Source: an uncultured Myxococcales bacterium (GTDB lineage: Bacteria; Myxococcota; UBA727; JABDBI01). Taken from it: a DNA stretch of 64,000 nt. Positions 2,179 through 19,700 of the stretch are shown piece by piece. The translations under genes and the position numbers were made by a program. The stretch lies in NCBI GenBank assembly GCA_964493205.1, contig CAZBMJ010000001.1:73611-137610 (forward strand), in the 5' to 3' direction. The first letter of the stretch is position 1. Each line of letters begins with the position of its first letter. The notes below the pieces were generated by a model, which saw nothing but the letters and a program-made list of their open reading frames with translations, was not told the origin of the DNA and did not search any database.

Positions 2179-4212
2179 ATGAAAAATATTTTTAAAATTT
2201 ATTTTATTATTGTGTTGTTATTTTTTATATCTTCTTGTGTTGATGTTGGAAAATCTGTGGAAAGAAAGCAATCTGGCGCCACAGGAAGTACAGATTCTTC
2301 TGGCTCAAATAACGATGAAACACTAAAAAAATGTAGCGAGCGTTCTAAGACTGAACTTAACTGTAGTTCAGATGGTAAATGCGAACTTTATCAAAATAAC
2401 TGTGTAGATGCTTGTCATACTATAAAAGAACCGACTGCTTGTGATGCACAAAAGCCAAGATGCCAATATTATAATGGAACTTGTTTACAATATTTTAAAG
2501 CTAAAGAACAAGAAGACGCTAAAAAAGAGGCAGAAGAGAAAGCTAAAAAAGAAGCAGAAAAGAAAGCTAAAGAAGAAGCTAACAAAATAGAGATATTAGG
2601 TGAGAATAAATATTTCAAAGTTAGTAAACAAGCTGGAAAAACTAGTTATGAAATAAAAGAAGCCGTTACCAAACCTACATTTATAAAAAAAGATGGGACG
2701 TTAGTGGAAAGTTCTAGTCTAGAGACTATTTCTTATGATGATTTTTCTAAGCTATCTCATATTGCTTTGCCTGAATCACATCCATTTACTAAACAGTTTT
2801 TAGAGAATCCCTTTGTCGGTAAAGATTTTATTACTTCAGCTAGGCCGTCTATGTGGGGCAAACTTTTAGTAGCACAAAAAACTGAGAAAAACACAGTGGT
2901 GTTTAGCATTGATAAAGATGTTTCAAAGCCAGATAAAAAAGTTATTGATGAAGCTAAGCTAACAGAACTTTTTGATGATTTTAAAAAACCAGAAAATCTT
3001 TTGGGCAAAGGTGGGGAGGGCAGTGTTTATAGAGTTAAGTACAATGGCGAAGATTATGCCTTAAAAATAAATGCAGCAGAGTACGAAGATTTAGAAAAAT
3101 TGCAGTCCACTGGGGCAGTGGCCAAAGTTTTTGGGACTTTTACATATGGCAATCAGCCTTGTATGCTCATGGAAGTTGGACAAAAAACTCTAGAAGATAT
3201 GAACAAACGTGGCGAAAAACTTAGTGAAGAGCAACTAAAAACTGCTATTACAAGTTTTAAAAACCTTGTTGCAGTGCAGAAAAAACTTGGGATTAGAAAT
3301 AACGATGTTAAACCAAACAATTTTTTGCTTACTAAAGATAATAAACTTGTAGTTATTGATATAAGTTCGATGCGCACTCGAGGATATGAAAGTTCAGATA
3401 CACAGCTTTTAGCTAGATCATTATTAGAAAATAAATTAGAAATGTCACTTAGAGGTGGTTATAGCGATTTGCAAGGCGTTCCTTTTCATGATCTAGAATA
3501 TATTAATCCAGAAATAATATCTCCAGACCTTTTGGTTAAGTGGAATAAAAAAGTTTGCAGTGAATTTTTACCTAAAGAGGATAAATGTAAAGATATCAAA
3601 AATTTTGCTGAATTTTTTAAACTTATTCCAACAGAGAAACTTTATGAAATTGCTTTGAAAATTAACCAAAAGTGGAATGATGTTTCAGGTACTGTTGATC
3701 AAGATAAGAATCTTATGGCGGGGGGGGGCAAATATCGTACTGGATTACCTATGCCTTTAGTGCAAGAACTAGATAATAACGTTTGGCAACAATACTTTGA
3801 TAAAAAAGACAATGTAATAAGTGGATTTTGTCGTTCTATTATTGCCAATTCTCAATATACTGAAGAAGAAGAAAAAGAAGGCCTTACAGGGGAAAAGGCT
3901 TTTTATAAACCATTTAAAGATAAATATAAGAAAGATTGTCTAGAAGATGGGACTGAAACTAACATCCATCTTCCAGGTAGAAAAGTTACAAAATATAAGT
4001 TAACTAAAAATTTTACTTCATCAGCAGATGAGGAATTTATACAATTTATTAAGGATGCTTATTCCTATCATATTTATCAACAAACCATGGCAAAATTAAT
4101 TGAAGATTATTCTAAATATACTGTTAAATATTTAATTAGTGATATTTTTAATAATGAATTAGATAAAAATGATGAAGTTAATAAAGGTTTAATTGAACTT
4201 TATAATTTGTAA
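2179..4212 (+). CDS. Eukaryotic-like Ser/Thr protein kinase lipoprotein (signal peptide plus lipobox FFISSC, Cys-rich N-terminal module, KEAEEKAKKEAEKKAK coiled-coil-like repeat, kinase domain, long C-terminal region)
   Basis: GKGGEGSVYRV, YALKI, NDVKPNNFLL and VIDISS motifs. Paralog of the 1..1091 gene with an identical C-terminus. Contains a G9 homopolymer at 3720..3728. Confidence 0.6.
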   Translation: MKNIFKIYFIIVLLFFISSCVDVGKSVERKQSGATGSTDSSGSNNDETLKKCSERSKTELNCSSDGKCELYQNNCVDACHTIKEPTACDAQKPRCQYYNGTCLQYFKAKEQEDAKKEAEEKAKKEAEKKAKEEANKIEILGENKYFKVSKQAGKTSYEIKEAVTKPTFIKKDGTLVESSSLETISYDDFSKLSHIALPESHPFTKQFLENPFVGKDFITSARPSMWGKLLVAQKTEKNTVVFSIDKDVSKPDKKVIDEAKLTELFDDFKKPENLLGKGGEGSVYRVKYNGEDYALKINAAEYEDLEKLQSTGAVAKVFGTFTYGNQPCMLMEVGQKTLEDMNKRGEKLSEEQLKTAITSFKNLVAVQKKLGIRNNDVKPNNFLLTKDNKLVVIDISSMRTRGYESSDTQLLARSLLENKLEMSLRGGYSDLQGVPFHDLEYINPEIISPDLLVKWNKKVCSEFLPKEDKCKDIKNFAEFFKLIPTEKLYEIALKINQKWNDVSGTVDQDKNLMAGGGKYRTGLPMPLVQELDNNVWQQYFDKKDNVISGFCRSIIANSQYTEEEEKEGLTGEKAFYKPFKDKYKKDCLEDGTETNIHLPGRKVTKYKLTKNFTSSADEEFIQFIKDAYSYHIYQQTMAKLIEDYSKYTVKYLISDIFNNELDKNDEVNKGLIELYNL

Positions 4213-8035: not shown

Positions 8036-8107
8036 AAATACTTTTATTCTTAATCCAAAAAATCCTCAGTATAGCTATACTAGTTAAATAGCTAAGGGGA
8101 GGGTTAA

Positions 8108-8206
8108 ATGAAAGAAGAAATAATAGCTGATTTAGAACTTGATATTGTAGAAGAGGCAGAACTACCTGAGTTTGATGTTCTTTTACAAAGAGAGTACGAA
8201 GGTTAG
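8108..8206 (+). CDS. 32-aa acidic peptide (MKEEIIADLELDIVEEAELPEFDVLLQREYEG), candidate precursor peptide of the downstream modification operon
   Basis: Very strong Shine-Dalgarno sequence (aaggggaggg) 5 nt upstream. Followed by a hairpin plus T-tract. Sits directly upstream of an HExxH/E1-like/YcaO/MFS operon. Not in the supplied ORF track because it is too short. Confidence 0.45.
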   Translation: MKEEIIADLELDIVEEAELPEFDVLLQREYEG

Positions 8207-8218
8207 TGTTATTTTCTA

Positions 8219-8247
8219 GGGTAGGCGCAGGTCTACCCATTTTTATT
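8219..8247 (+). terminator. Intrinsic terminator or attenuator hairpin (gggtag-gcgcaggt-ctaccc then atttttatt) between the small peptide gene and the enzyme genes
   Basis: 6-bp GC-rich stem with an 8-nt loop, followed by a T-run. Position is typical of a partial terminator that raises precursor-to-enzyme transcript ratio. Confidence 0.5.
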
Positions 8248-8258
8248 AAGGTGCATAT

Positions 8259-9194
8259 ATGCAAGATCAAAAAATATTTCATAAAGATTTAACCCTTACA
8301 AATTCTTTATTTTTTATGGATAATTTGGCATTAAGAGTTAAGAAAATTTTACTTTCTAGACTATTAGATTCTGAAATAGAATTAAAAAACCAAATAGAAT
8401 TTATGTTTAACAAAAAAATTGGCAATAGAAGTTTGTTATTGCATTCAGATATATTTTTTTGGATTAAAAGCCAAGAAAAAACTCCTCTAGAAAATATCTT
8501 AAAAAGTGTTTTAGATAGCTTTAAAACTATGCAAAATAACAAAAATAATTTTGGTTTTTTTATAAGCATTAATTATTTAAATAAAATTTTTACGAGTAAT
8601 CGTCTAGCACGAGCTCAAAGAGCAGCTTCTGAGGCAGGAACTGGAGAAATTTCTTTTAGTATTGTTGATGCTGATCTAGATTTATTCAATGAATCAATAA
8701 GGCTTTTATGTGATTATTATCCTTCTATTATGCAAGAGACAGAAAATTTTGTAAGCAATATTTGTTTTTTTGAAGGTAAGACTATTATAGGCTTTACTGA
8801 TTTTCAAAATCATGGCTCTATTTTTATGAAGTATCGATTAGTAAAAGATAATCCAATACGCCTAGCTGAAGAAATTGTTCATGAAGCAGGACATACAGTG
8901 CTTAATACTATTATGGTCAAAGATAGATTGATTTTAAATACTAAAGACGAGCGCTATAGTAGCCCGTTAAGGCAAGACTTAAGGCCGATGTTTGGCTTAT
9001 TTCATCAGTTATATGTTTTATCTAGGCTTAAAAAATTTTATATGGCCATCAGTAAAGCCCATAGCTCAGTAGCACAAAAGCAGTTACAAAAAATATGTGC
9101 GCAGCAAGATTTAGCTTTTGATATTGTTTCAAAAAATGCAAAATTTACCCCATTTGGTAAACAATTTTTTAATGAGCTTGAGTGTAATGCATGA
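8259..9194 (+). CDS. HExxH-motif protein (putative metal-dependent peptide-modifying enzyme or peptidase)
   Basis: IVHEAGHTVLNT HExxH motif. 4-nt ATGA overlap with the downstream E1-like gene indicates translational coupling. Confidence 0.4.
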   Translation: MQDQKIFHKDLTLTNSLFFMDNLALRVKKILLSRLLDSEIELKNQIEFMFNKKIGNRSLLLHSDIFFWIKSQEKTPLENILKSVLDSFKTMQNNKNNFGFFISINYLNKIFTSNRLARAQRAASEAGTGEISFSIVDADLDLFNESIRLLCDYYPSIMQETENFVSNICFFEGKTIIGFTDFQNHGSIFMKYRLVKDNPIRLAEEIVHEAGHTVLNTIMVKDRLILNTKDERYSSPLRQDLRPMFGLFHQLYVLSRLKKFYMAISKAHSSVAQKQLQKICAQQDLAFDIVSKNAKFTPFGKQFFNELECNA

Positions 9195-10219
9195 GCTTAT
9201 TAGTCTTAGCACCAAAAGTACAAATAGTGCCTCTTGATGAAAACAAAATAATATTATTTAAAAAGCATGCAAAATCTGCAAAACTAAGTATCGAACCATA
9301 TAAACATGAAATTTTTGCTAATCTTTTAGTAAGTGGTTTTAAAAAAGAAGATCTAAGTTTTTTACTGGAAAAGCCTCAAAATATTATTGATAATTTAATT
9401 CAAAAATTGCTTGAACATAAAATTTTATCTTTTAAGTCAGAAAACCATGTTTTGGCAAAATATAGAAGGCTAGAAGCTTATTTAGAAAATTCTCAATTAG
9501 AAAGCTTACAAAACAGTTCTGTTTTATTATTAGGAGTAGGCGGTCTTGGTAGTTATATTTTTGAACATTTAGTTGCCAATGGAATTAAAAATATTACTGT
9601 TCTTGATGATGATAGCGTTGAAGAAAGTAATTTATCCAGACAGACTTTGTATTCTGATGAAGATGTAGGAAACCTCAAAGTTGAGGCGGCAGCTGTATAT
9701 GCTCATAAGCATGGTATAAATATCCGCGCTTTAGCATGCAGAATTAACACTACTGATGATATACTAAAGATTATTAAAGATAATAAATTTGATTTGATCA
9801 TATCCACCATAGATGAGCCCATATGGCAAGTTACGAGATATGTTATTAACGCTGCAAAAGCAACAAATATACCAGTATTACGAGCTAATAGTAGGGCTGT
9901 GGGGCCATTTTATTTTCCTCATAAATCAGCGTGTCCTTTGTGTAAATCTTTTTATAAGGCGAAAAATATACCAAATGCTAAAAGTATTATGGAGCGTTAT
10001 AATAATGGTTTTCCAGCTCGTAAAACCTGCGCTATTAGCTATGAACTTGCCTATGTTAGTTTAATCGTCATAAAAGAGGCTATTAATTTTTTAGCCAATG
10101 TGGGTCAACTTGCCAGTTTCAATAAAGAGCTTACCTGGAATGCACAAGAACTAAGTGTTGCATCTCACAAAGTTATTGCTTGTAGTAATTGCATCGCTTG
10201 CGGTGATGTTTATGAGTGA
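9191..10219 (+). CDS. E1/ThiF/MoeB-like adenylyltransferase-family protein with a ~100-aa N-terminal extension and C-terminal CxxC...CxxCxxC cysteines (MccB/PaaA-like architecture)
   Basis: Rossmann motif LLLGVGGLGS, ThiF signature DDDSVEESNLSRQ, and C-terminal CPLCK...CSNCIACG. Confidence 0.6.
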   Translation: MSLLVLAPKVQIVPLDENKIILFKKHAKSAKLSIEPYKHEIFANLLVSGFKKEDLSFLLEKPQNIIDNLIQKLLEHKILSFKSENHVLAKYRRLEAYLENSQLESLQNSSVLLLGVGGLGSYIFEHLVANGIKNITVLDDDSVEESNLSRQTLYSDEDVGNLKVEAAAVYAHKHGINIRALACRINTTDDILKIIKDNKFDLIISTIDEPIWQVTRYVINAAKATNIPVLRANSRAVGPFYFPHKSACPLCKSFYKAKNIPNAKSIMERYNNGFPARKTCAISYELAYVSLIVIKEAINFLANVGQLASFNKELTWNAQELSVASHKVIACSNCIACGDVYE

Positions 10220-11354
10220 GATGTTTGGAGGCATAGGCACTGATAATGTTATTACTAAAAAATTTTTTCATGAAGAGTCAAGTTTTTATATTGCATACTT
10301 AGCAGCTAAATCACCTAAATTTTTAGGCAATTATAACATACCTGCAGGATATTTAGTGGGTAATGGTTTTTCTTTTAACGAAGAAGAAGCTAAAATAAAG
10401 GCTTTAGGCGAATTTATTGAGAGGTATTGTGCAGAAGTAAGTGTTCATGAAAAAGAAATTTATCGTTATTCTATAAAAGAGCTCGTTAAAAAATCTTTGG
10501 CTTTTGTTCACCCTAATACTCTTAGACCATACAAAAATTGTTCAAAATATCCAGAAATTCAAGATGATGAAGTTATCTCCTATGTTAAAGGTTATGAAGC
10601 ACTTGATAAAAAAGAAATTCTAATACCTGCCTTAGCTGCATTTTTGCCTTTTAAGCCTATTAATTTAGAAACAACTTTTTTTAGCCCCAGTGCTACTGGT
10701 TTGTCAGCTTATACTAATCAAGAACAAGCAGAATTATCAGCTTTATTAGAGGTTCAGGAAAGAAGCGATTTAATGGCCAGTTGGCGAATTAAAAACCTTA
10801 AAATTCAAAAATTGCTTACAAACGATTTGCCTGACCATATTACAAAATTTTTATATTATAATAATTTTAAGTTAAGGCTATTTGTAATTAATCAGACTGT
10901 TTTAGCTATGCTGTGTCATATAAACGATACTGGGTTAACTATTGGCTCTAAATCAGGAGTCATTAATATTATTACGATACTTGCTGCTATTAATGAAGCA
11001 ATTGCTTTGCAAATTACCATGCTAAATAAACGTGTGAGATTTAACGCTATCCCTAAAAATAGTTTAGAACATGTTATGTATGCTTATTTTAACTCTGAAA
11101 TATTTATAGAATTTTATGAGAAAAAAGTTGATGCACAACTAAGTTTTATTTCTGAAAATCAAATAAATAAAAATATATTTTTTGTGGATTTAAGTACTAA
11201 AAAAGCTAAAGAATCAGGTTGGTATTGCGCTAGATGCATAAATATAGAAGCTTTTAGCAAAGAAAATAATGCATATTATCCGCACTTAAAAAACTTTTTT
11301 GAACACGGATTCACTGAGGCTGAGTTAAACTTATTGCCGCATCCTTTTGGTTAA
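10206..11354 (+). CDS. YcaO-domain protein (ATP-dependent peptide backbone-modifying enzyme family)
   Basis: GNGFSFNEEEAKIKALGEFIERY matches the YcaO A-x-GE-x-IERY signature. C-terminus ends in LPHPFG (PxPxP-like). Start chosen at ATG 10206, overlapping the E1-like stop. The ORF track starts it at 10155. Confidence 0.55.
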   Translation: MFMSEMFGGIGTDNVITKKFFHEESSFYIAYLAAKSPKFLGNYNIPAGYLVGNGFSFNEEEAKIKALGEFIERYCAEVSVHEKEIYRYSIKELVKKSLAFVHPNTLRPYKNCSKYPEIQDDEVISYVKGYEALDKKEILIPALAAFLPFKPINLETTFFSPSATGLSAYTNQEQAELSALLEVQERSDLMASWRIKNLKIQKLLTNDLPDHITKFLYYNNFKLRLFVINQTVLAMLCHINDTGLTIGSKSGVINIITILAAINEAIALQITMLNKRVRFNAIPKNSLEHVMYAYFNSEIFIEFYEKKVDAQLSFISENQINKNIFFVDLSTKKAKESGWYCARCINIEAFSKENNAYYPHLKNFFEHGFTEAELNLLPHPFG

Positions 11355-11357
11355 AGA

Positions 11358-12539
11358 ATGAAAAAATCATTGATTATTTTAGGTGTTTCACAAACTATAT
11401 CTTCTATTAGTGTAACTATACTTATATTTGCCCTTATGATGAGCTCTTATGGTAATTCCAAAAGTATTTTAGATCTTGCTTGGGTTTATATAGCCACATC
11501 TTTGCCAGTTTTTTTAGTAGCACCTTTTTGTGGATTATTAATAGATAAGCTTAATAAAAAGCTTAATTTAGTAATAGCCGATAGTATTTGTATTTTATCA
11601 GTACTCTTTCTTTATTTTAATAACTATTTTATTTTCTTGGTAGTTTTTTTTGTACAATTAAGCATAAGTTATCAGGGCTTAACCAATCAAACTTTGGTGT
11701 CGCTATTTTTTAATAAAGATAAACTTCATATGATACTTGGGTGGATGCAATTTAAAAAAGCTTTGCAGCGTTTAGTAGCGCCAGCTTTAGGTGGATATTT
11801 ATATAATATGTTGGAATTAAAATATATTATAGCTGTTAGCATTATTAGTTTAATAATAGCTTTAATTAGTTTAATTTTTGTGAATATACCTAGTGTTAAT
11901 ATTGGAAAATTATCTAACAGCAATTTTATTAATAATGCCGGATTAAAATATATATTGAGCGATAAAAATTTATTTAATATATGCATTTTTTTTATATTTC
12001 TTAATTTTTTATCTGGTATTTATTCTGTTGTTTATACTCCCATATTATTAGCTTTTAGCGATGAACAAGCTTTGGGTTATGCATTAAGTATTGGCAGTTT
12101 GGGAATGATTTTTGCAAGTTTAACGAGCGCTCATATAAAAAGCCTTACACAAAAAAAATATCAAGCTCTTTTGCTATATGTTTTTATGAATGGCTTAAGT
12201 GAAATATTTATGGCTTCATACCCAAATTTTTGGGTCTATTCTGTGGGTTTGTTATTTGGTTGTATTACTTCTTCTTATATAGCTGTTTGTAATAATATTA
12301 TATGGCAGTCTAGTGTGCCGTTCTCTATTCAAGGTGCTACTTTTGGGGCAAGAGATTTTTTTGCTCTTGGTGCATTACCATTGGGTATGCTGATTGGTGG
12401 AATTTTTGGTGATTTTATTAAATCCAACTATGAGCTTTCTCATATATTAATCTTAACGGGAATTTTGCAGTTAATTTTAGTAGCTTTTTATAGCTATGCG
12501 TGGAGGTTTGAGCATGAAGGGGTATATAGTAATAGATAA
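11358..12539 (+). CDS. MFS-family transporter, putative exporter of the modified peptide
   Basis: About 12 predicted TM helices. Starts 4 nt after the YcaO stop. MFS exporters are typical of microcin C and pantocin-type clusters. Confidence 0.55.
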   Translation: MKKSLIILGVSQTISSISVTILIFALMMSSYGNSKSILDLAWVYIATSLPVFLVAPFCGLLIDKLNKKLNLVIADSICILSVLFLYFNNYFIFLVVFFVQLSISYQGLTNQTLVSLFFNKDKLHMILGWMQFKKALQRLVAPALGGYLYNMLELKYIIAVSIISLIIALISLIFVNIPSVNIGKLSNSNFINNAGLKYILSDKNLFNICIFFIFLNFLSGIYSVVYTPILLAFSDEQALGYALSIGSLGMIFASLTSAHIKSLTQKKYQALLLYVFMNGLSEIFMASYPNFWVYSVGLLFGCITSSYIAVCNNIIWQSSVPFSIQGATFGARDFFALGALPLGMLIGGIFGDFIKSNYELSHILILTGILQLILVAFYSYAWRFEHEGVYSNR

Positions 12540-13134
12540 TTTTTATGAGAATCCTGATTTAATTAGAGCTCAAGCTTTAGAAGCTGATTTTTCTAAAAAG
12601 CATCCAAAATATCCAGGTATTGATAGCTCGTTAATGTTTAATAATAGTGAAGCTGAAGAGAAAATTAAAAGTATTATAAAATATGATACTCAAAGAGCAA
12701 GCTATTCAGGATTTTTTCGATTATCTACTGCGGATGAATATTACAAAGAAGGACATGGTATTCATATTGATAAATATGATATTGCTGCGATAATTTATTT
12801 AGCTCAGCCTGGCCAAAATAAACAGGTAGGTACAAGCTTTTTAAAGCATAAAGCTTCTGGTCTTACTAATTTTTATAATATTAAAAGAGATCCTAATCTT
12901 AATCCTGATTGGCAGCGTTTGGATACTCAAGAAATTATGAAAATAATTGTTAACGATATGGAAAAAAATGATGCAACTTTATGGGATTTAGTAGAAGAAG
13001 TGGAGTTTAAATATAATCGCGCTGTTTTAATGAGAGGTAACTTATTTCATAAGTTGAGTAACGGCTTTGGGCAAAATGTAGAAAACGGTCGCTTAACTCA
13101 AAATTTCTTTTTAAATATACCAAGAACTTTATAA
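12514..13134 (+). CDS. Putative 2OG-Fe(II) oxygenase-like protein (candidate HxD...H facial triad: HIDKYD and LFHKLS)
   Basis: N-terminal VIDNFYENPD motif resembles putative 2OG-Fe(II) oxygenase families. The ORF track start at 12496 overlaps the MFS gene. The second Met at 12514 is preferred. Confidence 0.35.
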   Translation: MKGYIVIDNFYENPDLIRAQALEADFSKKHPKYPGIDSSLMFNNSEAEEKIKSIIKYDTQRASYSGFFRLSTADEYYKEGHGIHIDKYDIAAIIYLAQPGQNKQVGTSFLKHKASGLTNFYNIKRDPNLNPDWQRLDTQEIMKIIVNDMEKNDATLWDLVEEVEFKYNRAVLMRGNLFHKLSNGFGQNVENGRLTQNFFLNIPRTL

Positions 13135-13231: not shown

Positions 13232-14425
13232 ATGTTAAAAATTAAATTATTATATTTATTATTGCTTTTACAGTTTTTTTCTTGCACTAATTATAATAAA
13301 CAAATCAAAAAAAATAATAATTTATTGTCCTTATGGCTCCCTTTTTCTTCTAAAAGAACAAAACAAGCTTATGAGCATTCTTTAATTAGAACTTCTAGGC
13401 TTAGTTCTGATTGCGGCAAAAATTGTCCTGATATTGATGTTTGGCAATATAAATACAAAAATATAACTAGTGATAAACCTATTTCTACTCAAAAAAAATA
13501 CTGGAAATCACCTAATGAAGCTCGAGTCATAGCTATAAGTTTATTTGGAACCAATGAGTTTTATTATAATGCTTTGCTGCAATATATAGATAGTTTTGCT
13601 TATATTAAAAATATTAATAATATAAAAGATAAAATTTGGGGTTATGAAACGTTTACTGTTAGAGTTTATGTTCCCAAACGAAATCCTAAATTTTTAAAAG
13701 AATTAGGGGTGATTGGAGGCGGCTTAGAGCAGAAAAAAATAGATAAATTATTAGATTTAGGATGCGAAATAGCATTTGTTGATAATAAATTATCTGAGGC
13801 TAAGAAAGATGCTACTTTTTGGCGATTTATGATTACTCAAGAAGCCATGTTAGAAGGCGAAAAAATTAGATATCTACTTAGAGATGCAGACAGTATTTTA
13901 ACTGCTGGTGAAATGTACACAGTTGCCGATTGGATCAATAGCCATAAAAAATATCATAGAATGCATACCATACCCATTTGTATAGGTCCTTTAACGGCAA
14001 GTATTTGGGGGGGGACTCATAGCGAAAAGGGTGATTTTAGTGATTTTTATGACTCGGTAAAAAATTACCCTTATAGATTTGAATACGGCGATGATGAATT
14101 ATTTTTAAGAGACATTATTTGGCCAAAAATAAAATTTTCTGGTTCTGTTCTTACTCATCATTTTGATCGTGATTCATATATAACTAAAATAGCCAACCCT
14201 TATAAAAATAGTTGCGAAGAGCCTACACAGGATTTTTGCTTACAACTAAATCCTAATTCTCAGTGTGAAGATCGTATTTTGCCCAACGTAAAAAATTTAC
14301 AAGGTGCCGTAGAAGCTTTAGGATTAAGAAAAACCTTAAAAGAGTTATCAGAAAAGCACCCAGAGTTTTTTGATCTAGATTTAGCCAACAAAGATAGAAA
14401 ATTTGTTTACGAAACATTTAGGTAA
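13232..14425 (+). CDS. Hypothetical lipoprotein (signal peptide, lipobox FFSC)
   Basis: N-terminal MLKIKLLYLLLLLQFFSCTN. No motif recognised. Confidence 0.5.
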   Translation: MLKIKLLYLLLLLQFFSCTNYNKQIKKNNNLLSLWLPFSSKRTKQAYEHSLIRTSRLSSDCGKNCPDIDVWQYKYKNITSDKPISTQKKYWKSPNEARVIAISLFGTNEFYYNALLQYIDSFAYIKNINNIKDKIWGYETFTVRVYVPKRNPKFLKELGVIGGGLEQKKIDKLLDLGCEIAFVDNKLSEAKKDATFWRFMITQEAMLEGEKIRYLLRDADSILTAGEMYTVADWINSHKKYHRMHTIPICIGPLTASIWGGTHSEKGDFSDFYDSVKNYPYRFEYGDDELFLRDIIWPKIKFSGSVLTHHFDRDSYITKIANPYKNSCEEPTQDFCLQLNPNSQCEDRILPNVKNLQGAVEALGLRKTLKELSEKHPEFFDLDLANKDRKFVYETFR

Positions 14426-14428
14426 AGT

Positions 14429-16669
14429 ATGATTAAATCAAGATGGTTTTACGATATATCTTCTAGCATAACAGTATTTTTAGTCGCATTGCCCTTGTGC
14501 CTAGGTATTGCTCTTGCTTCTAATGCTTCTTTAGTTTCAGGTATTTTATCAGGCGTTGTAGGAGGTATAGTTGTAGGGTTTCTAAGTGGTTCTCATGTAA
14601 GTGTCAGTGGCCCTTCTGCAGCTCTTGCTTCTATTATTGTTACACAAATTCTTGTTCTAGGATCGTTTGAAGCATTTTTAATAGCTTTAATTATTGCAGG
14701 ATTAATCCAAATAATAATGGGCTTATTTAAAATTGGTTTTATTGCAGCTTTTTTCCCAAACAGCGTCATTAAAGGCCTACTTTTTTCTGTTGGTGTAATT
14801 ATAGTATTAAAACAGTTGCCCCATTTAGTTGGTTTAGATTTAGATTATGAAGGCGACATGTCTTTTTGGCAACTTGATCATGAAAATACTTTTAGTGAAA
14901 TTGTTAAAATGTTTTCTTTTTTTCATACCGGTTGCTTAATAGTAGGTATGTCTTCTTTAGCTTTTATAGTGGCCTGGAATAAGTTTACTTTTTCTAAAAA
15001 AGTTAAAATTCCTTCTGCTTTATTGGTTGTATTATTTGGTAGTTTTTTAGGTTTTTGCTTGCCTTATATAAATAAGTGGTGGTTTATTGACGCAGGGCAC
15101 TTAGTTCAAGTGCCGTTAGTAACCAGCCTACATGATATAAAAAATTTTTTTATTTTACCAAATTTTATTCACTTGAATAACCCAGAAGTTTATATAGCAG
15201 GTTTTACTTTGGCGTTAGTTGCATCTTTGGAAACTTTATTAAATTTAGAAGCTGTTGATAAAATAGATCCAAAAGGTCGTAAGTCTCCTGCTAATAGAGA
15301 GTTAATAGCCCAGGGGATAGGAAATTTAGTTTTAGGCTTTATAGGTGGCTTGCCAGTGACTTCGGCAGTTATTCGTAGCTCTGTTAATATTAATGCTAAA
15401 GCGCAAAGTAAATTATCAGCTATTCTTCATGGTTTTTTTTTGCTATTTTGTGTGACTTTATTGCCTCAAGTATTAAATTATATTCCACTTTCTTGTTTGG
15501 CAGCTATATTGATAGTTACAGGGGCTAAACTTGCTAATTTATCGGTTATAAAACAAATATGGCAGGAAGGTTTAAACCAATTTTTACCATTTTTAGTAAC
15601 TTTTTTAGCTATTATGTTTTCTGATTTATTAATGGGTGTACTTATTGGCTTAGGAACAAGCATATTTTTTATTTTGAAAAGTAATTTAAAAACGCCTGTT
15701 AAAATCTGTACTGAAAATCACCCCTCAGGTGAGCGCAAGCGTATGATTTTATCTAATCAGGTAAGCTTTTTAAATCGTGCATCTTTAAATAGAGCTCTTG
15801 ATAGCATTACTAATGGTAGTCATTTAGTAATTGATGCAACAGAGACTGATTATATAGATGCTGATGTTCTAGATTTAATAAAAGATTTTAAAGATAGTGA
15901 ATCTCAAAAAAGAGACATAGTAATAAGTTTAATAGGTTTTAAAGATTCTTACGATATAGAAAATTTTATTCAATATGAAGAGCATATTACCCATGAACTA
16001 CAAAAAAATCTTACTCCATTAGAAGTGCTTGATATTATTAAAAAAGGGAATGATAGGGTTATTAAAGGACAAAAACTTAAGCGTGATCTTAACCGCCAAA
16101 TACAAGGAACTAAAGAAGGTCAATTTCCTATGGCAGTGGTTTTAAGTTGTATCGATTCAAGAGTGCCCGTTGAACTTATTTTTGATTTAGGCATAGGTGA
16201 TGCTTTTAGTGTTCGTATGGCGGGCAATGTGATAAGTCCTAAAGTATTAGGAAGCTTAGAATTTTCTTGTGCGGTTGCCAAAGCAAAACTTATTGTTGTC
16301 ATGGGCCATACCAAATGTGGGGCAGTTGCTGCTGCAATTGAATGCTTAAAAAATAACCAATCTATTGAGGAAAAAACAGGATGCTATAATTTAGGCGGTA
16401 TAATTAATGATATTCAAAAAGTTATTGATAAGCCTTTAATTAACCAGAGTGATGCTTACCTCAATGAAGTAGTGAAATCTAATGTTTTGCAGGCGATTCA
16501 TGATATAAAAAATAAAAGTTTTGTGCTTAATAACTTACTCAAACAAAATAATATAGCTATAGTTGGTTGTATTTATGATGTATCAAGTGGCAAAGTGGAA
16601 TTTTTAGATTTAGCAAAAAATAGATTATTTTCTTCCGCTAAACAAGAGCTATTAGAATTGCTTAATTAA
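14429..16669 (+). CDS. SulP-family anion transporter with STAS domain, fused to a C-terminal beta-carbonic anhydrase
   Basis: SulP membrane domain about 420 aa. C-terminal CIDSRVP and VMGHTKCGAV are the beta-carbonic anhydrase zinc ligand motifs (CxDSR and HxxC). Confidence 0.7.
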   Translation: MIKSRWFYDISSSITVFLVALPLCLGIALASNASLVSGILSGVVGGIVVGFLSGSHVSVSGPSAALASIIVTQILVLGSFEAFLIALIIAGLIQIIMGLFKIGFIAAFFPNSVIKGLLFSVGVIIVLKQLPHLVGLDLDYEGDMSFWQLDHENTFSEIVKMFSFFHTGCLIVGMSSLAFIVAWNKFTFSKKVKIPSALLVVLFGSFLGFCLPYINKWWFIDAGHLVQVPLVTSLHDIKNFFILPNFIHLNNPEVYIAGFTLALVASLETLLNLEAVDKIDPKGRKSPANRELIAQGIGNLVLGFIGGLPVTSAVIRSSVNINAKAQSKLSAILHGFFLLFCVTLLPQVLNYIPLSCLAAILIVTGAKLANLSVIKQIWQEGLNQFLPFLVTFLAIMFSDLLMGVLIGLGTSIFFILKSNLKTPVKICTENHPSGERKRMILSNQVSFLNRASLNRALDSITNGSHLVIDATETDYIDADVLDLIKDFKDSESQKRDIVISLIGFKDSYDIENFIQYEEHITHELQKNLTPLEVLDIIKKGNDRVIKGQKLKRDLNRQIQGTKEGQFPMAVVLSCIDSRVPVELIFDLGIGDAFSVRMAGNVISPKVLGSLEFSCAVAKAKLIVVMGHTKCGAVAAAIECLKNNQSIEEKTGCYNLGGIINDIQKVIDKPLINQSDAYLNEVVKSNVLQAIHDIKNKSFVLNNLLKQNNIAIVGCIYDVSSGKVEFLDLAKNRLFSSAKQELLELLN

Positions 16670-16771: not shown

Positions 16772-19700
16772 ATGAACAAAATATTTTTATATTGTTTAGT
16801 GTTTATTACTGCTAATTATTTATCAGCTATGAAATTTAATCCAATTAATAAAGATTGCTATATTGAAAGAAATTATGAGGTATTAAATAACTATAATAAT
16901 TTTAGTGTTTATATTAAATCTAAAATTGTTGATGTTATTGATAATTTTTATGAAAAATATGTGAAAAAAGATCTTCATAATGAAAGATATATGACTAGGT
17001 TGTTATTATTTTTAGTAAATATGGCACATGAATATAATATTGTAGATGATATTTTAGAAAATATTGAAAAAAATAATGAACAAGAAATTATAATTTACGC
17101 AAAAGAAATATACTTAAAATTTAGTAAAAATAATAATGAATTAATTCAAAATGCTTACACGGCTTTTGACGATAAAATATCAATAGAAGAATTAAATAAA
17201 TTAAGTCTTAATAATTCATATGGCATTGATGTTGTATATAAAAATAATAACATGATTAATCACCATTTAGTGGATATGATATTTTTTAAAATTATTAAAA
17301 ATAATTGTGATTTAGAAATAACTAGCCCTTCTTTAGGAATAACACTTCCAGCATCTATATGGTTTAAGTTGATTATTCTTGATCAGCAAGTAAAGATTTT
17401 ACTTTATAAAGAAAAATTTATATATAAACCATATTTTCCTTCAGTTGTTATAGAAACTTTATTTGATGATAATAATCATAGTAATTGTAGTAATATCGAG
17501 AAAATTAATAAATTATTAAGTGGTTTATTTTTATTTAATAAAAGTGATTTTGATATTATAAAAAATGCATTTAAGTTTATAAAAAATATAGAAGATTTTA
17601 AAAATTTTAATAAAAAAGATCATTTTTTTCTTTTTAGATATATTGCTTATAAATACGATGATAAAAAAAAATATACAATGTTAAATTATTTTACAGAAAA
17701 TATTATATCTAAGAATTATGTTGATTTTTATAATGATAATTTTGGATTTTCTTCATTAGTAAATGAACTCAATCTTAATGTAAATGATTATAGTGCTGAA
17801 AAGATTGAAAATATTAAAAATAATATAATCAACCAACATAAAAAACGTATGTATGAAATTTTATCTAAAAAATATTTTTACAATAAAGAAGTGAGTGATA
17901 ATATTGCTCGAATAGAATATGATAATTTTCTGTTTGAAAGTGAAATTGTTAATAATTATAATAAAATAATTATTGATTTTAATAAAAAAAATAAAGATAT
18001 ATTAACTGTTGATAAAATTTTAAAAATTAAAAGCAATTTCAATGAATCTTTTAAGAAAAAAATTTTTGATATAACTGAAATATTAAAAAATAATTTAAAT
18101 AATAAACAAATTGGCATTTATAATAAATTTAATAATATTTATTTTGATTATAATGAATTTAAAAACATTGAGATTTTTGATTATAATTATGAGATGACAG
18201 ATTTTTATAAAAAAATTAGAAATAGATTGTTTGCTAATGAAATTGTTAAATTGATAATTATTAAATCGATTAAATTTAATTTTATAAACGATAATTCAAC
18301 GGAACAAGATGTTATTAATTTAATTAAAGAAAGGACTAATTTTTTATTAAATAGTAATAGTAAAAACATGTTCGATAATGAAATTATTTATTTAAATAAT
18401 ATTGTAGATATTAAATATAAGTCAAAATCTAAAAATTTAATAGGTATTGATGTATTTATTTTTAATGAATTTTTAAGAGAGTTTTATTTGAAAATATTTT
18501 ATATATCTCCTGAAAATAAATATAATTTTTCTACAAAAAGCAATAAATTAGATATTGAATTACGATTTGATGAATGGCTCTTATTATTTGAAACTTTATC
18601 AAAAAAAGCAATTTTTAATGAGTTAGCAGTGCAAAATATTTTTGATAAAATAGTTGAGAAATTTAAAGATATTAAAGCTTATATAAAATACAACAATGAG
18701 AATCCATTTTTTGATAATTATTTAGCGGGTAAAAACAATCAATCTCTTAGAAAAAAACTGTTTGTTTATTATTTATATAATGAAAATAAAGAACTTATTG
18801 ATAATATTAAAAATGAAAATAATGAAGAAATTATAAGAAATAAATTTAATAATTTTTTAAGCAAAATTAATTACGCTAATAAGATTTTAATCAATAATAA
18901 AGAACAAGAAGAGCTAAAAGAACAAGATAAAGCGATTATCGATGAATATTTAGAAGAATTATTAGGTAAAACTTCTCATATAAGTTTTGCGTCAAATAAA
19001 AAAAATAATAAAAAAACGCAAGCTAAGAAAAAAACAAAAGTAAAACCAGATAAAAAAACAGAAAATAAAAAAGAACTAGAACCAGAGGCAACTAAAAATA
19101 ATAAAGACAAGCAAAAAACAACTAAAACTAATAAAAACAACAAAAACCCACAAAACCAAACTGGTGGTTTTATTGCAGATATACCTCTTCATAATAATAC
19201 AAAAAAAACAAAGAAAGCTTTGACGAAAGGGAAAATATTAGTCCAAGAAGCAGAGGCAGAAAATAAAAAAGAAGTAGAGCCGAATGCAACTAAAAGTAAT
19301 AAAAACAAGAAAAACCAACAAGAACAAACTGGTGGTTCTGTTGCTGAAAGTCCAGGTGTAGGGCTTCGTGAAGTTTTTGAAGCAACGCCTAGTCCTCCTG
19401 AGAATTCAAAAGTTTTTTTACCAAAAGCCTCTAATAAAGTTTTGCCGAAAAGGGAAATATTAGTCCGAGAAGCAGAGGTAGAACCAGAAGCAGAACCATC
19501 TACAGATTTATCTAAATACAAATATTTATCAAAAAAAGTTATTGTACCACAAATAAATAGCCAGTTTGGAGCTTTGCAGTATAAACTTGATAAAAAATAT
19601 GAAGATAAGCAAGAAAAAGTAGGGAAAAATGATGTAGTTTCTCTGCCTAACAGTAATGAGAAACCAGTAGCTATTAAACAAAAAACTGAATTGAGTCCTG

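Follow-up and report, generated by a model that had tools for sequence, protein, structure and literature searches.

Organization of the operon

The analysed stretch of DNA (64,000 nucleotides; the window) carries six consecutive + strand genes at positions 8108–13134, which were confirmed by independent gene calls (Table 1). The first-pass annotation had proposed the same six-gene operon, and each of its domain assignments was borne out by HMM, profile or fold evidence. The independent calls place the YcaO start at the ATG at 10212 and the DUF6445 start at the ATG at 12514, the latter with GGAGG 7 nt upstream.

Table 1. Genes and expression signals of the operon (window positions).
Feature	Position	Strand	Details
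Shine-Dalgarno AAGGGGAGGG	8094–8103	+	4 nt 5' of the peptide ATG; direct sequence reading
Precursor peptide gene MKEEIIADLELDIVEEAELPEFDVLLQREYEG	8108–8206	+	32 aa; net charge −10; independent gene call
GC-rich hairpin and T-run, terminator-like or attenuator	8219–8247	+	between precursor gene and enzyme genes
aKG-HExxH-type peptide hydroxylase (predicted)	8259–9194	+	311 aa; HEAGH at residues 208–212; TIGR04267
MccB-like E1/ThiF adenylyltransferase	9191–10219	+	342 aa; ~95-aa N-terminal extension; PF00899
YcaO-domain ATP-dependent amide-activating enzyme	10212–11354	+	380 aa; C-terminal PHPFG; PF02624
MFS exporter, MFS_1/MFS_3 'secretion effector' type	11358–12539	+	393 aa; PF07690
DUF6445 Fe(II)/2-oxoglutarate oxygenase (predicted)	12514–13134	+	206 aa; PF20043

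The genes had been described as packed throughout by 4-nt overlaps or gaps. This applies to the HExxH/E1 junction, a 4-nt ATGA overlap, but not to the others: the peptide and HExxH genes are separated by 52 nt that contain the hairpin, the E1 and YcaO genes overlap by 8 nt (ATGAGTGA), the YcaO and MFS genes are 3 nt apart, and the MFS and DUF6445 genes overlap by 26 nt.

The identical gene order was found in five diverged lineages (GC 29–52%) in four unrelated genomic contexts. Because this order recurs in the four other lineages with junctions similar to those of the window, the arrangement is not due to chance. Four of the five lineages have overlapping E1 and YcaO genes, and in L002 the two are 13 nt apart. 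All homologous loci keep the genes together beside a conserved small peptide, an outcome in favour of the first-pass interpretation, for which scattered genes would have counted as refutation. It is well supported that positions 8094–13134 form an autonomous, self-contained RiPP biosynthetic operon. The operon belongs to a very rare family: among 1.84 billion representative proteins, just 17 YcaO clusters fell below 1e-30, and the representative genomes of 185,579 species contained no close relative.

Precursor peptide and its expression signals

The peptide gene is present as one copy in every locus. Its orthologues are 65–88% identical over the last 26 residues, compared with 38–64% for the enzymes across the five lineages, and the codon differences between lineages are mostly synonymous or conservative. 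By this sequence comparison, the peptide is the best-conserved element of the operon, more so than any enzyme, and the 32-residue acidic peptide is evidently a real gene under strong purifying selection. The block LPE[FL]DVLLQREY[DE][GNA], which reads LPEFDVLLQREYEG in the window peptide, is invariant in all five lineages, as is VEE, which is followed by A, I, S or V. The last residue varies between G, N and A, being Gly in the window and L002 and Asn in L010 and L013 (two of the five lineages), while the residue before it is Asp or Glu in every lineage. The window peptide contains no Cys, Ser or Thr, as noted in the first reading, and none of these is conserved in the peptide of any lineage. 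DLELDIVEE is proposed as the leader in the window peptide, although the leader/core split is only a guess because the whole peptide is conserved.

The strong ribosome-binding site claimed earlier for this gene was found, and L002, L010 and L013 likewise have comparable GGAG-type sites ahead of the peptide gene. No promoter-like site was found directly 5' of the peptide gene. The hairpin that had been proposed is a terminator-like stem-loop located 3' of the peptide gene, GGGTAGGC-GCAG-GTCTACCC at 8219–8238, followed by ATTTTTATT. Its free energy is −14.5 kcal/mol (z = −2.7). The position of the hairpin is kept in all five lineages, whereas its sequence differs.

The conservation of the peptide above any enzyme, its synonymous-dominated substitutions and its occurrence at every locus make it highly improbable that the locus is not a RiPP cluster at all. 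In that case, the small ORF would either not be a true gene or serve in regulation, with the enzymes modifying a metabolite or a protein such as ribosomal uS12, or the E1 would be an anti-phage E1-E2 (Cap2-like) component. Ribosomal protein uS12/RPS23 is a target of both E. coli YcaO and OGFOD1-type hydroxylases, and the DUF6445 protein has OGFOD1 as its best structural match, which speaks for a protein substrate. The PADLOC E1-E2 models match the E1 generically; however, these matches are confined to its nucleotide-binding part and fall short of those to ThiF and MccB in strength, and no E2, JAB or CD-NTase is encoded in the operon. The MFS exporter also fits an exported product.

Oxygenases and exporter

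The HExxH protein matches TIGR04267 with 78 bits (cut-off 40), and its family profile matches the ChlH structure 8s5f (E = 4.8e-12), with the HExxH motif and the PLRxDxRPxxGLxH block aligned. TIGR04267-type HExxH proteins are aKG/Fe-dependent peptide hydroxylases rather than proteases, and their chemistry includes hydroxylation and oxidative cleavage, from which C-terminal amides can result (PMC12636437). On these matches, the product of 8259–9194 is assigned as an aKG-HExxH-type peptide hydroxylase. The lack of Cys, Ser and Thr had been taken to exclude azoline formation. The lack itself stands, but the exclusion does not follow, since a residue hydroxylated by an enzyme of this family could supply the nucleophile for azoline-type rings.

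The last gene had been described as a putative Fe/2OG oxygenase, with PF13759 as the suggested family. It has no PF13759 match and belongs instead to PF20043 (DUF6445; 59.8 bits). Throughout the wider family, H84-x-D86...H179 and R193 never vary, and the AF2 model (pLDDT 88) has OGFOD1, proline hydroxylases, P4H and PHD2 as its top Foldseek matches. Sequence and model together identify it as a predicted Fe/2OG oxygenase with a fold nearest to protein prolyl hydroxylases. The DUF6445 family is also present in other RiPP-type clusters, and it adjoins TfuA in another cluster. The exporter matches PF07690 (MFS_1, 63 bits) and is 44–53% identical across all five lineages.

E1 adenylyltransferase

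The ThiF assignment of the E1 is supported by a PF00899 match of 120 bits. Its closest solved relative is MccB (profile E = 3e-28; hhalign 99.4%), and the similarity extends over the whole adenylation and Zn domain. All five lineages share GVGGLGS, DxD, SNLSRQ, K163, D208 and two CxxC pairs without change, so that all ATP-, Mg- and Zn-binding residues are kept despite an overall identity of 46–48%. No Cys outside the Zn site is conserved in the five lineages, making a relay through a thioester or persulfide less likely. Neither the MccB clamp nor PqqD-type RREs showed significant similarity to the N-terminal domain.

The relationship to MccB raises the possibility of a microcin C-like Trojan-horse compound, in which the E1 makes a C-terminal N-P-linked peptidyl-nucleotide that is exported by an MccC-like MFS protein. 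The nearest plasmid-borne relatives also lie in ThiF and MFS mcc-type clusters, and two of the five lineages have Asn-terminal peptides. However, the C-terminal Asn that is essential in MccB chemistry is absent from the window and two other lineages, and a last residue that varies speaks against MccB-type chemistry in its strict form. The alignment shows no equivalent of MccB Tyr239, HMM searches of the operon found no MccD/E/F homologues, an acidic 32-aa peptide conserved in full does not resemble the Mcc peptides that are directed to uptake, and no role is left for YcaO or DUF6445. One variant can accommodate the changing last residue. In it, this residue would first be removed oxidatively by the HExxH enzyme, as by PflC/PosC, leaving an Asp or Glu alpha-amide, which the E1 would cyclise to an imide and nucleotidylate to give an aspartyl- or glutamyl-adenylate mimic. 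The constant Asp/Glu before a small, variable last residue agrees with this, as does the formation of C-terminal amides by HExxH enzymes (PMC12636437). Overall, a product of this kind is unlikely.

A pantocin A-type small molecule is given a very low probability. As PaaA does, the E1 would modify the side chains of neighbouring internal Glu residues, for which the invariant VEE is available, DUF6445 and MFS would take the roles of the PaaB oxidase and PaaC, and the C-terminal block would be a follower peptide. The set of precursor, E1, aKG oxidase and efflux pump equals paaPABC (PMC12596934), the precursors are similar in length (32 vs 30 aa) with comparable overall conservation, and PaaA is among the solved relatives of the E1. 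Nevertheless, the PaaA match (E about 1e-13) covers only the N-terminal half of the domain and is far weaker than that of MccB, the residue after EE is never the Asn of the EEN core, and the YcaO and HExxH enzymes would be unexplained.

YcaO enzyme

The YcaO assignment was also supported by HMM (PF02624, 90.7 bits). Both ATP-binding ExxER motifs and the C-terminal PHPFG (PxPxG) are invariant in the five lineages, and we take this terminus to resemble the PxPxP motif of TOMM enzymes. The best NCBIfam model is SagD (TIGR03604), although the scores of 85–125 bits across the family are well below its cut-off of 219 (reported as less than half). Among solved structures, the profile is closest to 6pe3 and 6ci7, two archaeal YcaOs that form thioamides.

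SagD as the best model and the PxPxG end suggest a canonical linear azoline (TOMM/LAP) pathway, in which the E1-like protein would be a non-catalytic leader-binding partner of a YcaO cyclodehydratase and both oxygenases would act in late tailoring. Neighbouring E1-like and YcaO genes are the defining TOMM arrangement (PMC12596934, section 3.6), and the E1 has a weak TIGR03882 match in its C-terminal half. This pathway is nonetheless improbable, given the SagD scores below cut-off and peptides with no conserved Cys, Ser or Thr. The invariant ATP, Mg and Zn residues of the E1 would be unexpected in a mere scaffold, and no McbB-type docking protein was found among the best 60 of its 67 solved relatives or among 43 profile-search matches. 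The functional link between E1 and YcaO is uncertain because a mere YcaO docking partner needs no intact adenylation site.

There is similarly little probability of a thioamide or amidine pathway, in which YcaO would activate a backbone amide so that sulfide or an amine can attack it, and the ThiF-like enzyme would take part in mobilising sulfur, for example as a C-terminal thiocarboxylate on the peptide, as ThiF/MoeB do on ThiS/MoaD. The archaeal relatives, the Gly-terminal peptides of the window and L002 (like ThiS and MoaD), a ThiS gene adjoining the distant HExxH-YcaO locus L014 and the DUF6445–TfuA pair are in its favour. However, the thioamide-YcaO matches are partial, with a weak E-value of 1.8e-7, and SagD scores about twice as high as the thioamidation model. 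TfuA, ThiS and rhodanese are absent from the operon in every lineage, the C-terminal Gly is not conserved, and the E1 has no conserved Cys beyond its Zn site.

Proposed biosynthetic pathway

By sequence, all four enzymes keep the residues predicted to be needed for catalysis. The operon most likely serves to make a small natural product for export from the very acidic 32-residue peptide. It is likely to represent a new RiPP family, with all four enzymes required for the product. In the best reading, this family merges pantocin/microcin C logic (active E1, oxygenase and MFS) with YcaO chemistry. We infer every chemical step of the pathway.

The strong ribosome-binding site and a leaky hairpin would provide the precursor in excess over the enzymes. 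The N-terminal half, acidic and aliphatic with the pattern [DE]L[DE]L[DE][IV]VEE, may be the leader bound by the E1 N-terminal domain. The aKG-HExxH enzyme would hydroxylate a side-chain carbon within the invariant DVLLQREY[DE]x, where Asp, Gln and Glu are precedented target types; enzymatic hydroxylation probably supplies the nucleophile missing from the peptide. YcaO, translationally coupled to the E1, would phosphorylate a backbone amide and close a ring with an internal nucleophile. The new hydroxyl is the most plausible one because no Cys, Ser or Thr is conserved, and an oxazoline-type ring would result. This specific hydroxylation-then-cyclodehydration step is put forward tentatively. 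In curacozole, a non-Ser/Thr residue is proposed to be hydroxylated and then cyclised to an oxazole (PMC11575548). The E1 would adenylate a carboxylate, either that of a Glu/Asp side chain or the alpha-carboxylate at the C-terminus, on the small last residue, and the adenylate may be captured within the same peptide, as with MccB, PaaA, GrcB and IndF. The DUF6445 oxygenase could oxidise the product further. Housekeeping peptidases would trim the peptide, as the operon encodes no protease, and the MFS pump would export a small, fixed product, as for pantocin A and microcin C.

Comparison with known systems

The combination of four modifying enzymes appears to be new; the first-pass annotation recognised no described cluster type, and no description was found in the literature. 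Its likening of the locus to microcin C and pantocin A (E1, MFS and oxygenase) and to TOMMs (E1 and YcaO) was apt, since MccB is the closest solved E1 relative and YcaO scores best against the SagD TOMM model.

As in TOMM/LAP cyclodehydratases (E1-like C and YcaO D; McbBCD, BalhCD), the E1-like and YcaO genes are adjacent and translationally coupled, and YcaO has SagD as its best family model and a Pro-rich extreme C-terminus. Unlike in these systems, the substrate has no conserved Cys, Ser or Thr, an FMN dehydrogenase is absent, the E1 keeps a complete adenylation site, and YcaO is under the SagD cut-off. The phenyloxazole of curacozole/YM-216391 offers a precedent, as a non-Ser/Thr residue is thought to be beta-hydroxylated before YcaO-type cyclodehydration (PMC11575548). 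However, the hydroxylase there is a P450 whose step was not reconstituted, those peptides also contain ordinary Cys/Ser, and a catalytic E1 is absent. The HExxH enzyme resembles the aKG-HExxH hydroxylases (ChlBH/ChlH, BpmH, PflC/PosC; IPR026337/TIGR04267) in its score above the family cut-off, in the HExxH and PLRxDxRP...H motifs that align with solved ChlH, and in a gene directly following the precursor gene, whereas its partners are YcaO and E1 instead of rSAM or MNIO enzymes.

The locus shares with microcin C7 (MccA/MccB/MccC) an E1 most similar to MccB across the adenylation and Zn domain, an acidic residue near the peptide C-terminus and an MFS exporter, which lies two genes downstream of the E1 here and directly downstream in mcc. 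It differs in its long, acidic, invariant precursor without a conserved C-terminal Asn (G/N/A), in an E1 N-terminal domain not detectably homologous to the MccB clamp, in the absence of MccD/E/F homologues, and in the added YcaO and two oxygenases. Pantocin A (paaPABC; PaaP precursor, PaaA E1-like, PaaB aKG oxidase, PaaC efflux pump) is defined by a catalytic RRE-E1, an aKG oxidase and an efflux pump (PMC12596934). The present operon differs by its added YcaO and aKG-HExxH hydroxylase, by the absence of an EEN core and by an E1 nearer to MccB than to PaaA. The two systems are alike in a precursor of about 30 aa conserved end to end, an E1 with an N-terminal extension (predicted from its intact residues to be catalytically competent), a Fe/2OG-type oxidase, an MFS exporter and the absence of a dedicated protease. 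From these pantocin A-like gene features (PMC12596934), a small, fixed exported product is therefore expected.

Organization of the operon

The operon consists of six genes, found both in the ORF listing of the window and, independently, in the gene call of an identical contig in a public assembly (Logan SRR12762304). The ThiF, YcaO, and HExxH assignments, which the first-pass annotation had made from the DNA alone, were borne out by profile matches to PF00899 (120 bits), PF02624 (90.7 bits), and TIGR04267 (78 bits, E = 8e-22, above the curated cut-off of 40), respectively. The transporter matches MFS_1 (63 bits). The genes are tightly packed, as was first described, but not by uniform 4-nt overlaps or gaps. 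The successive junctions are a 52-nt gap (peptide/HExxH), a 4-nt ATGA overlap (HExxH/E1), an 8-nt overlap (E1/YcaO), a 3-nt gap (YcaO/MFS), and a 26-nt overlap (MFS/DUF6445). A ribosome-binding site, AAGGGGAGGG, lies 4 nt 5' of the peptide ATG, and an 8-bp GC-rich hairpin with a T-run (-14.5 kcal/mol, z = -2.7) follows the peptide gene. No sigma-70-like promoter was detected directly 5' of the peptide gene, and Rfam returned only two tRNAs on the window. With six genes in about 5 kb, the operon is compact enough for direct synthesis and heterologous expression.

Features of the window, with the identity of the operon products from further lineages to the window protein
Feature	Position (nt)	Strand	Product (aa)	Gene call	Identity to window protein
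Precursor peptide	8108-8206	+	32	ORF listing and independent call	65-88% (last 26 residues)
HExxH protein	8259-9194	+	311	ORF listing and independent call	42-48%
E1/ThiF protein	9191-10219	+	342	ORF listing and independent call	46-48%
YcaO	10212-11354	+	380	ORF listing and independent call	38-44%
MFS transporter	11358-12539	+	393	ORF listing and independent call	44-53%
DUF6445 protein	12514-13134	+	206	ORF listing and independent call	58-64%
Peptide codons compared across loci	8156-8200
Hairpin with T-run	8219-8247
ORF directly 3' of operon	13232-14425		397
SulP/beta-carbonic anhydrase fusion	14429-16669
Protein 3' of the fusion gene	16772-20917		1381
Protein kinase domain ORF	165-1091
Protein kinase domain ORF	2179-4212
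Disintegrin/FG-GAP protein	49820-52648		942

Elsewhere in the window, two ORFs of this 31% GC genome carry eukaryotic-type protein kinase domains (Pkinase, E ~1e-7 to 1e-8), and a large protein has a disintegrin domain together with FG-GAP repeats, which are eukaryote-like adhesion modules. A SulP sulfate transporter is fused to a beta-carbonic anhydrase, and the protein encoded 3' of this fusion gene has no Pfam match.

Conservation of the operon

Four further lineages (loci L002-L004, L008-L009, L010-L012, and L013) were found by protein searches with YcaO and the HExxH protein, followed by a look-up of the encoding contigs. They carry the identical six genes in the identical order. Three of the five lineages escaped a word-indexed YcaO search and were recovered later via the HExxH protein. 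A scan of metagenome DNA for the pattern DVLLQREY[DE]G added one true locus, L006, a close variant of the window locus; a second match, L007, was a chance occurrence in another reading frame. Because the pattern demanded a final Gly, it was blind to variants ending in EA or DN, and the family is therefore undercounted.

The surroundings of the operon change from lineage to lineage. It is flanked by an enoyl-CoA hydratase gene upstream and a lipoprotein-like gene downstream in the window, by glmU and a radical SAM gene in L002, by a sensor kinase gene in L008, and by Na/H antiporter and DAG kinase genes in L010 and L013. Together with a GC content of the loci ranging from 0.29 to 0.52, these differing flanks indicate that the operon itself is the inherited or transferred unit. 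The ORF directly 3' of the operon in the window was excluded, since it is not conserved beside the operon in other lineages. Its product has a lipoprotein-like N-terminus (…LLLLQFFSC) and no Pfam, NCBIfam, or PADLOC match.

The precursor peptide

Judged by alignment, the peptide is the most conserved part of the unit. Its sequence is MKEEIIADLELDIVEEAELPEFDVLLQREYEG in the window, MSEINNGNIDLELEVVEEIELPELDVLLQREYDG in L002, MSETKKSNIELELEVVEEVDLPELDVLLQREYDN in L010, and MSETNKTNVELELEVVEEVELPELDVLLQREYDN in L013, and the C-terminal part in L008 reads ...MREEICEELELEIVEESELPEFDVLLQREYEA. The block LPE[FL]DVLLQREY[DE] is invariant across lineages, while the last residue varies (G, G, A, N, and N in the five lineages, with Gly in the window). 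VEE is also invariant, with A, I, S, or V as the next residue. The net charge is -8 to -10. The window peptide has no Cys, Ser, or Thr, and none of these residues is conserved among the lineages.

Lineage pairs differ at 11-19 codons of the peptide gene, and the window and L006 differ at 7. The majority of these differences are silent, and the others are chiefly D/E, I/V, or F/L exchanges, a pattern that marks a translated gene evolving under purifying selection. The hairpin 3' of the peptide gene is found in all five lineages with a different sequence in each, and such position-kept, sequence-variable hairpins are typical of attenuators that set the precursor-to-enzyme ratio.

Within the peptide gene, the GAT GTT (Asp-Val) and CAA AGA (Gln-Arg) codons are nucleotide-identical in all six sequences across GC contents of 29-52%, and the adjoining Leu and Glu codons vary freely. 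This identity may be due to chance, given the small sample, or to a constraint on the mRNA.

The two predicted oxygenases

The HExxH protein falls in the family now named by NCBI as aKG-HExxH-type peptide beta-hydroxylase (TIGR04267/IPR026337). H208, E209, H212, R238, D240, R242, and H249 are invariant in all six aligned sequences, and the family profile matches the solved hydroxylase ChlH (8s5f, E = 4.8e-12) with an alignment running through HExxH and the PLRxDxRP..GL.H block. The protein is thus placed among the predicted Fe/aKG-dependent peptide hydroxylases. Characterized members hydroxylate Asp, His, or Gln of RiPP precursors, and PflC and PosC additionally perform oxidative backbone cleavage to give a C-terminal amide (PMC12636437).

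A distant HExxH relative (35% identity over half of the query) is encoded in another small cluster, L014:232-3509. Besides the HExxH protein, this cluster encodes a GNAT, a highly divergent YcaO of 321 aa, and a peptide of 52 aa whose leader is of the Gly-Gly type (…LEKVVGG|KSGGKGLADGDFYTAVVTQERASAA); a ThiS gene lies on the other strand. Pairing of HExxH with YcaO thus reaches beyond the six-gene operon family, and sulfur chemistry may be involved in this cluster.

The last gene had been annotated as 2OG-oxygenase-like with an expected match to PF13759. The enzyme class was correct in view of its metal-binding triad and fold; the family was not, and the protein matches PF20043 (DUF6445, 59.8 bits). 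H84-x-D86, H179, and R193 are invariant in all 15 sequences compared, with identities as low as 26%. Confidence in the AF2 model is high (pLDDT 88), and the model gave 167 PDB matches at E <= 0.001; all 50 of the matches listed are Fe/2OG oxygenases, the best being OGFOD1, proline hydroxylases, the EF-Tu prolyl hydroxylase, and PHD2. The triad, the 2OG-binding Arg, and the modelled double-stranded beta-helix fold assign DUF6445 to the Fe(II)/2OG oxygenase superfamily. Full-text searching, the coverage of which excludes most subscription journals, gave no mention of DUF6445.

DUF6445, a domain without known function, recurs in at least three other families of RiPP-type clusters. In L026:6179-8735 and L027:6727-8945, ORFs of 48 and 52 aa with the common motif RTS[SN]NNM precede tandem arrays of two or three DUF6445 paralogues, and L026 also has an MFS transporter; the arrangement has the appearance of a further undescribed peptide-modification cluster centred on DUF6445. 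Std-type RiPP clusters with MNIO and carbamoyltransferase genes, at L028:2751-9667 and L029:599-10195 (Piscinibacter gummiphilus plasmid NZ_CP136338.1), have one or two DUF6445 genes. The L028 carbamoyltransferase is fused to a peptidase S8 domain, and the L029 DUF6445 gene adjoins TfuA and GNAT genes. The L028 precursor ends SNKEWQE, as in the paper on std-type clusters (PMC13174530), where DUF6445 is not among the enzymes characterized.

The E1 protein and the readings it bears on

Among solved structures, MccB of the microcin C pathway is clearly the best match of the E1 protein, and the match spans the whole adenylation and Zn-binding domain (72 bits for the single sequence; E = 3e-28 for the family profile, residues 80-333). 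An hhalign comparison with MccB from an E. coli mcc plasmid gave a probability of 99.4%, with only the adenylation domain aligned. PaaA, the pantocin A enzyme, is a weaker, partial match. The GVGGLGS glycine loop, DxD, SNLSRQ, K163, D208 (the catalytic-site Asp, aligned with MccB D214), and two CxxC pairs are invariant in all five lineages. This pattern fits genuine carboxylate adenylation and is at odds with the degenerate docking partners in LAP synthetases, described as proteins that "do not catalyse a specific reaction" (PMC12596934). No further conserved Cys occurs beyond the two CxxC pairs in the five lineages, and nothing in the pattern points to a relay through a thioester or persulfide.

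The E1 protein begins with a conserved extension of ~95 aa in the same place as the MccB peptide clamp. Neither hhalign nor Pfam found homology of this extension to the MccB clamp or an RRE fold; the N-terminal domains of the five orthologues alone gave only sub-threshold winged-helix matches in Pfam, and the single-sequence AF2 model (pLDDT 33.5) is unusable.

The homology of the adenylation domain to MccB could point to a microcin C-like nucleotide peptide, for instance one in which the HExxH protein removes the variable last residue to leave an Asp/Glu alpha-amide, from which E1 forms an imide and nucleotidylates it. Attractive as this version is, the C-terminal Asn is not conserved (the window peptide ends in Gly) and YcaO is left without a role, which makes this reading unlikely. 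The invariant VEE might instead undergo pantocin-type chemistry, yet the Glu-Glu-Asn (EEN) core is absent, and we regard this as very unlikely. A non-RiPP or anti-phage role is highly improbable and was rejected on account of the peptide conservation and the absence of E2/JAB partners; for an anti-phage E1-E2 system, PADLOC gave only generic E1-domain matches.

A search of plasmids for a pantocin cluster by way of PaaB recovered none, and a tblastn search of plasmids with DUF6445 gave no Pantoea match. What was found in Pantoea is an mcc-like ThiF and MFS pair (L032, Pantoea piersonii plasmid NZ_CP104760.1, 85373-87642). This minimal pair lies between malQ and malM within the maltose regulon, adjoining a winged-helix regulator, and looks like an mcc-type cluster without an annotated precursor gene.

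The YcaO protein and the substrate

Both ExxER ATP/Mg motifs of YcaO are invariant (E67/E70/R71 and E180/E183/R184), as is the extreme C-terminus, PHPFG (PxPxG). A C-terminal PxPxP motif marks partner-dependent TOMM cyclodehydratases, and PHPFG may be a PxPxG variant of this motif. The SagD TOMM model TIGR03604 is the best model for all family members, with 85-125 bits, far under the cut-off of 219, and its score is about twice that of the thioamidation model. Against solved structures, only archaeal thioamide-forming YcaOs were matched, and weakly (E = 1.8e-7). YcaO is thus a divergent lineage, the chemistry of which is not readable from homology.

A plain TOMM, in which E1 is only a scaffold for azoline formation, would agree with SagD being the best model, but is contradicted by a substrate without a conserved Cys/Ser/Thr nucleophile, by the conserved E1 active site, and by scores under the SagD cut-off; it is improbable. 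Thioamide or amidine chemistry is equally hard to credit; for thioamidation, TfuA, ThiS, sulfur-carrier, and rhodanese genes are absent from the operon in all lineages. As the substrate is short, invariant, and devoid of Cys, Ser, and Thr, the chemistry must be something other than azoline formation of the textbook kind.

The PxP[FY]G terminus is common to a wider clade of library proteins, P0045-P0052. These are YcaOs of ~390-420 aa (E = 1e-53 to 1e-37 against the family profile), for which SagD is likewise the best model, under cut-off. At L005:2115-6066, two YcaO genes lie on either side of a 61-aa Lys-rich ORF (MKKNLLKIRPTMCATWADPEPNSKK…), with a JmjC/cupin-type oxygenase and a GNAT close by; one of the two is the sole other weak word-index match to the window YcaO.

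Rarity and novelty

A YcaO profile built from two sequences, searched exhaustively with HMMER against 1.84 billion representative proteins, gave no more than 17 clusters below 1e-30. The first three are members of the operon family and the next ones end in PxP[FY]G. A YcaO alignment scan of one genome each of 185,579 species turned up no close relative, and the distant YcaOs among its matches (21-33% identity) are without E1, HExxH, or DUF6445 neighbours. Full-text searching gave no description of the combination of HExxH, YcaO, MccB-like E1, and MFS genes; most subscription journals are outside its coverage, and absence is no proof. Among the pathways listed in a 2025 review of ThiF-like RiPP chemistry, none has both a catalytic E1 and YcaO. 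The operon is rated as a new RiPP family assembled from known enzyme superfamilies, and its chemistry is likely new.

New enzyme chemistry and antibiotic leads come in large part from RiPP pathways. A catalytic E1 and YcaO are ATP-dependent activating enzymes of which a pathway normally has one or the other, and here they occur together with two non-haem iron oxygenases, one from the only recently recognized HExxH family. On a short invariant substrate, mass shifts are easily mapped.

Proposed pathway and comparison with known systems

In five lineages, a translated, strongly constrained peptide always occurs together with four enzymes and an exporter, and the four enzymes are predicted to be catalytically competent from their kept residues. 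It is probable that the operon represents a new RiPP family, the product of which needs all four enzymes. The acidic/aliphatic N-terminal half of the peptide would act as the leader, similar to acidic/aliphatic motifs proposed for RRE recognition in other families, and the core would lie within the invariant C-terminal block.

The HExxH protein may hydroxylate a side chain, after which the SagD-like YcaO would perform ATP-dependent cyclodehydration to an oxazoline-type ring. Since the peptide has no native beta-nucleophile and the next gene encodes a side-chain hydroxylase, hydroxylation followed by cyclodehydration is the most economical link between the HExxH protein and YcaO, and a like logic was proposed for the phenyloxazole of curacozole (PMC11575548); as the specific step, it is put forward tentatively. 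The intact E1 would adenylate a carboxylate for intrapeptide capture, on either the small C-terminal residue (alpha-carboxylate) or an Asp/Glu side chain, as adenylated carboxylates are captured within the same peptide by MccB, PaaA, GrcB, EnfB, and IndF. DUF6445 would add a further oxidation.

It can be hypothesized, with considerable doubt, that the operon defines a new RiPP class in which the HExxH protein makes the nucleophile on a nucleophile-free peptide, a TOMM-like YcaO uses it to cyclize the backbone, and a fully catalytic MccB-like E1 closes a second ring at a carboxylate with ATP or nucleotidylates, giving a small, invariant, highly oxidized, acidic product of uncultured bacteria that is exported by the MFS transporter. 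If true, this would be the first pathway with YcaO and active E1 chemistry on one substrate and the first function for DUF6445. The product could be an antimetabolite or Trojan-horse inhibitor, such as an Asp/Glu-adenylate mimic, or a metal-binding compound.

The tiarins (trifolitoxin-like) are defined by the TfxB/TfxC pair (bioRxiv 10.64898/2025.12.02.691738), an FMN-dependent dehydrogenase pair; the operon differs from them in that it encodes no nitroreductase-type protein. It resembles the pantocin A and microcin C systems, in which host peptidases release a small product, in having no protease gene, an MFS exporter, and a peptide sequence that is fixed across very different genomes. If its product is likewise a fixed small molecule, as in pantocin A and processed microcin C, it may provide a new antimetabolite scaffold.
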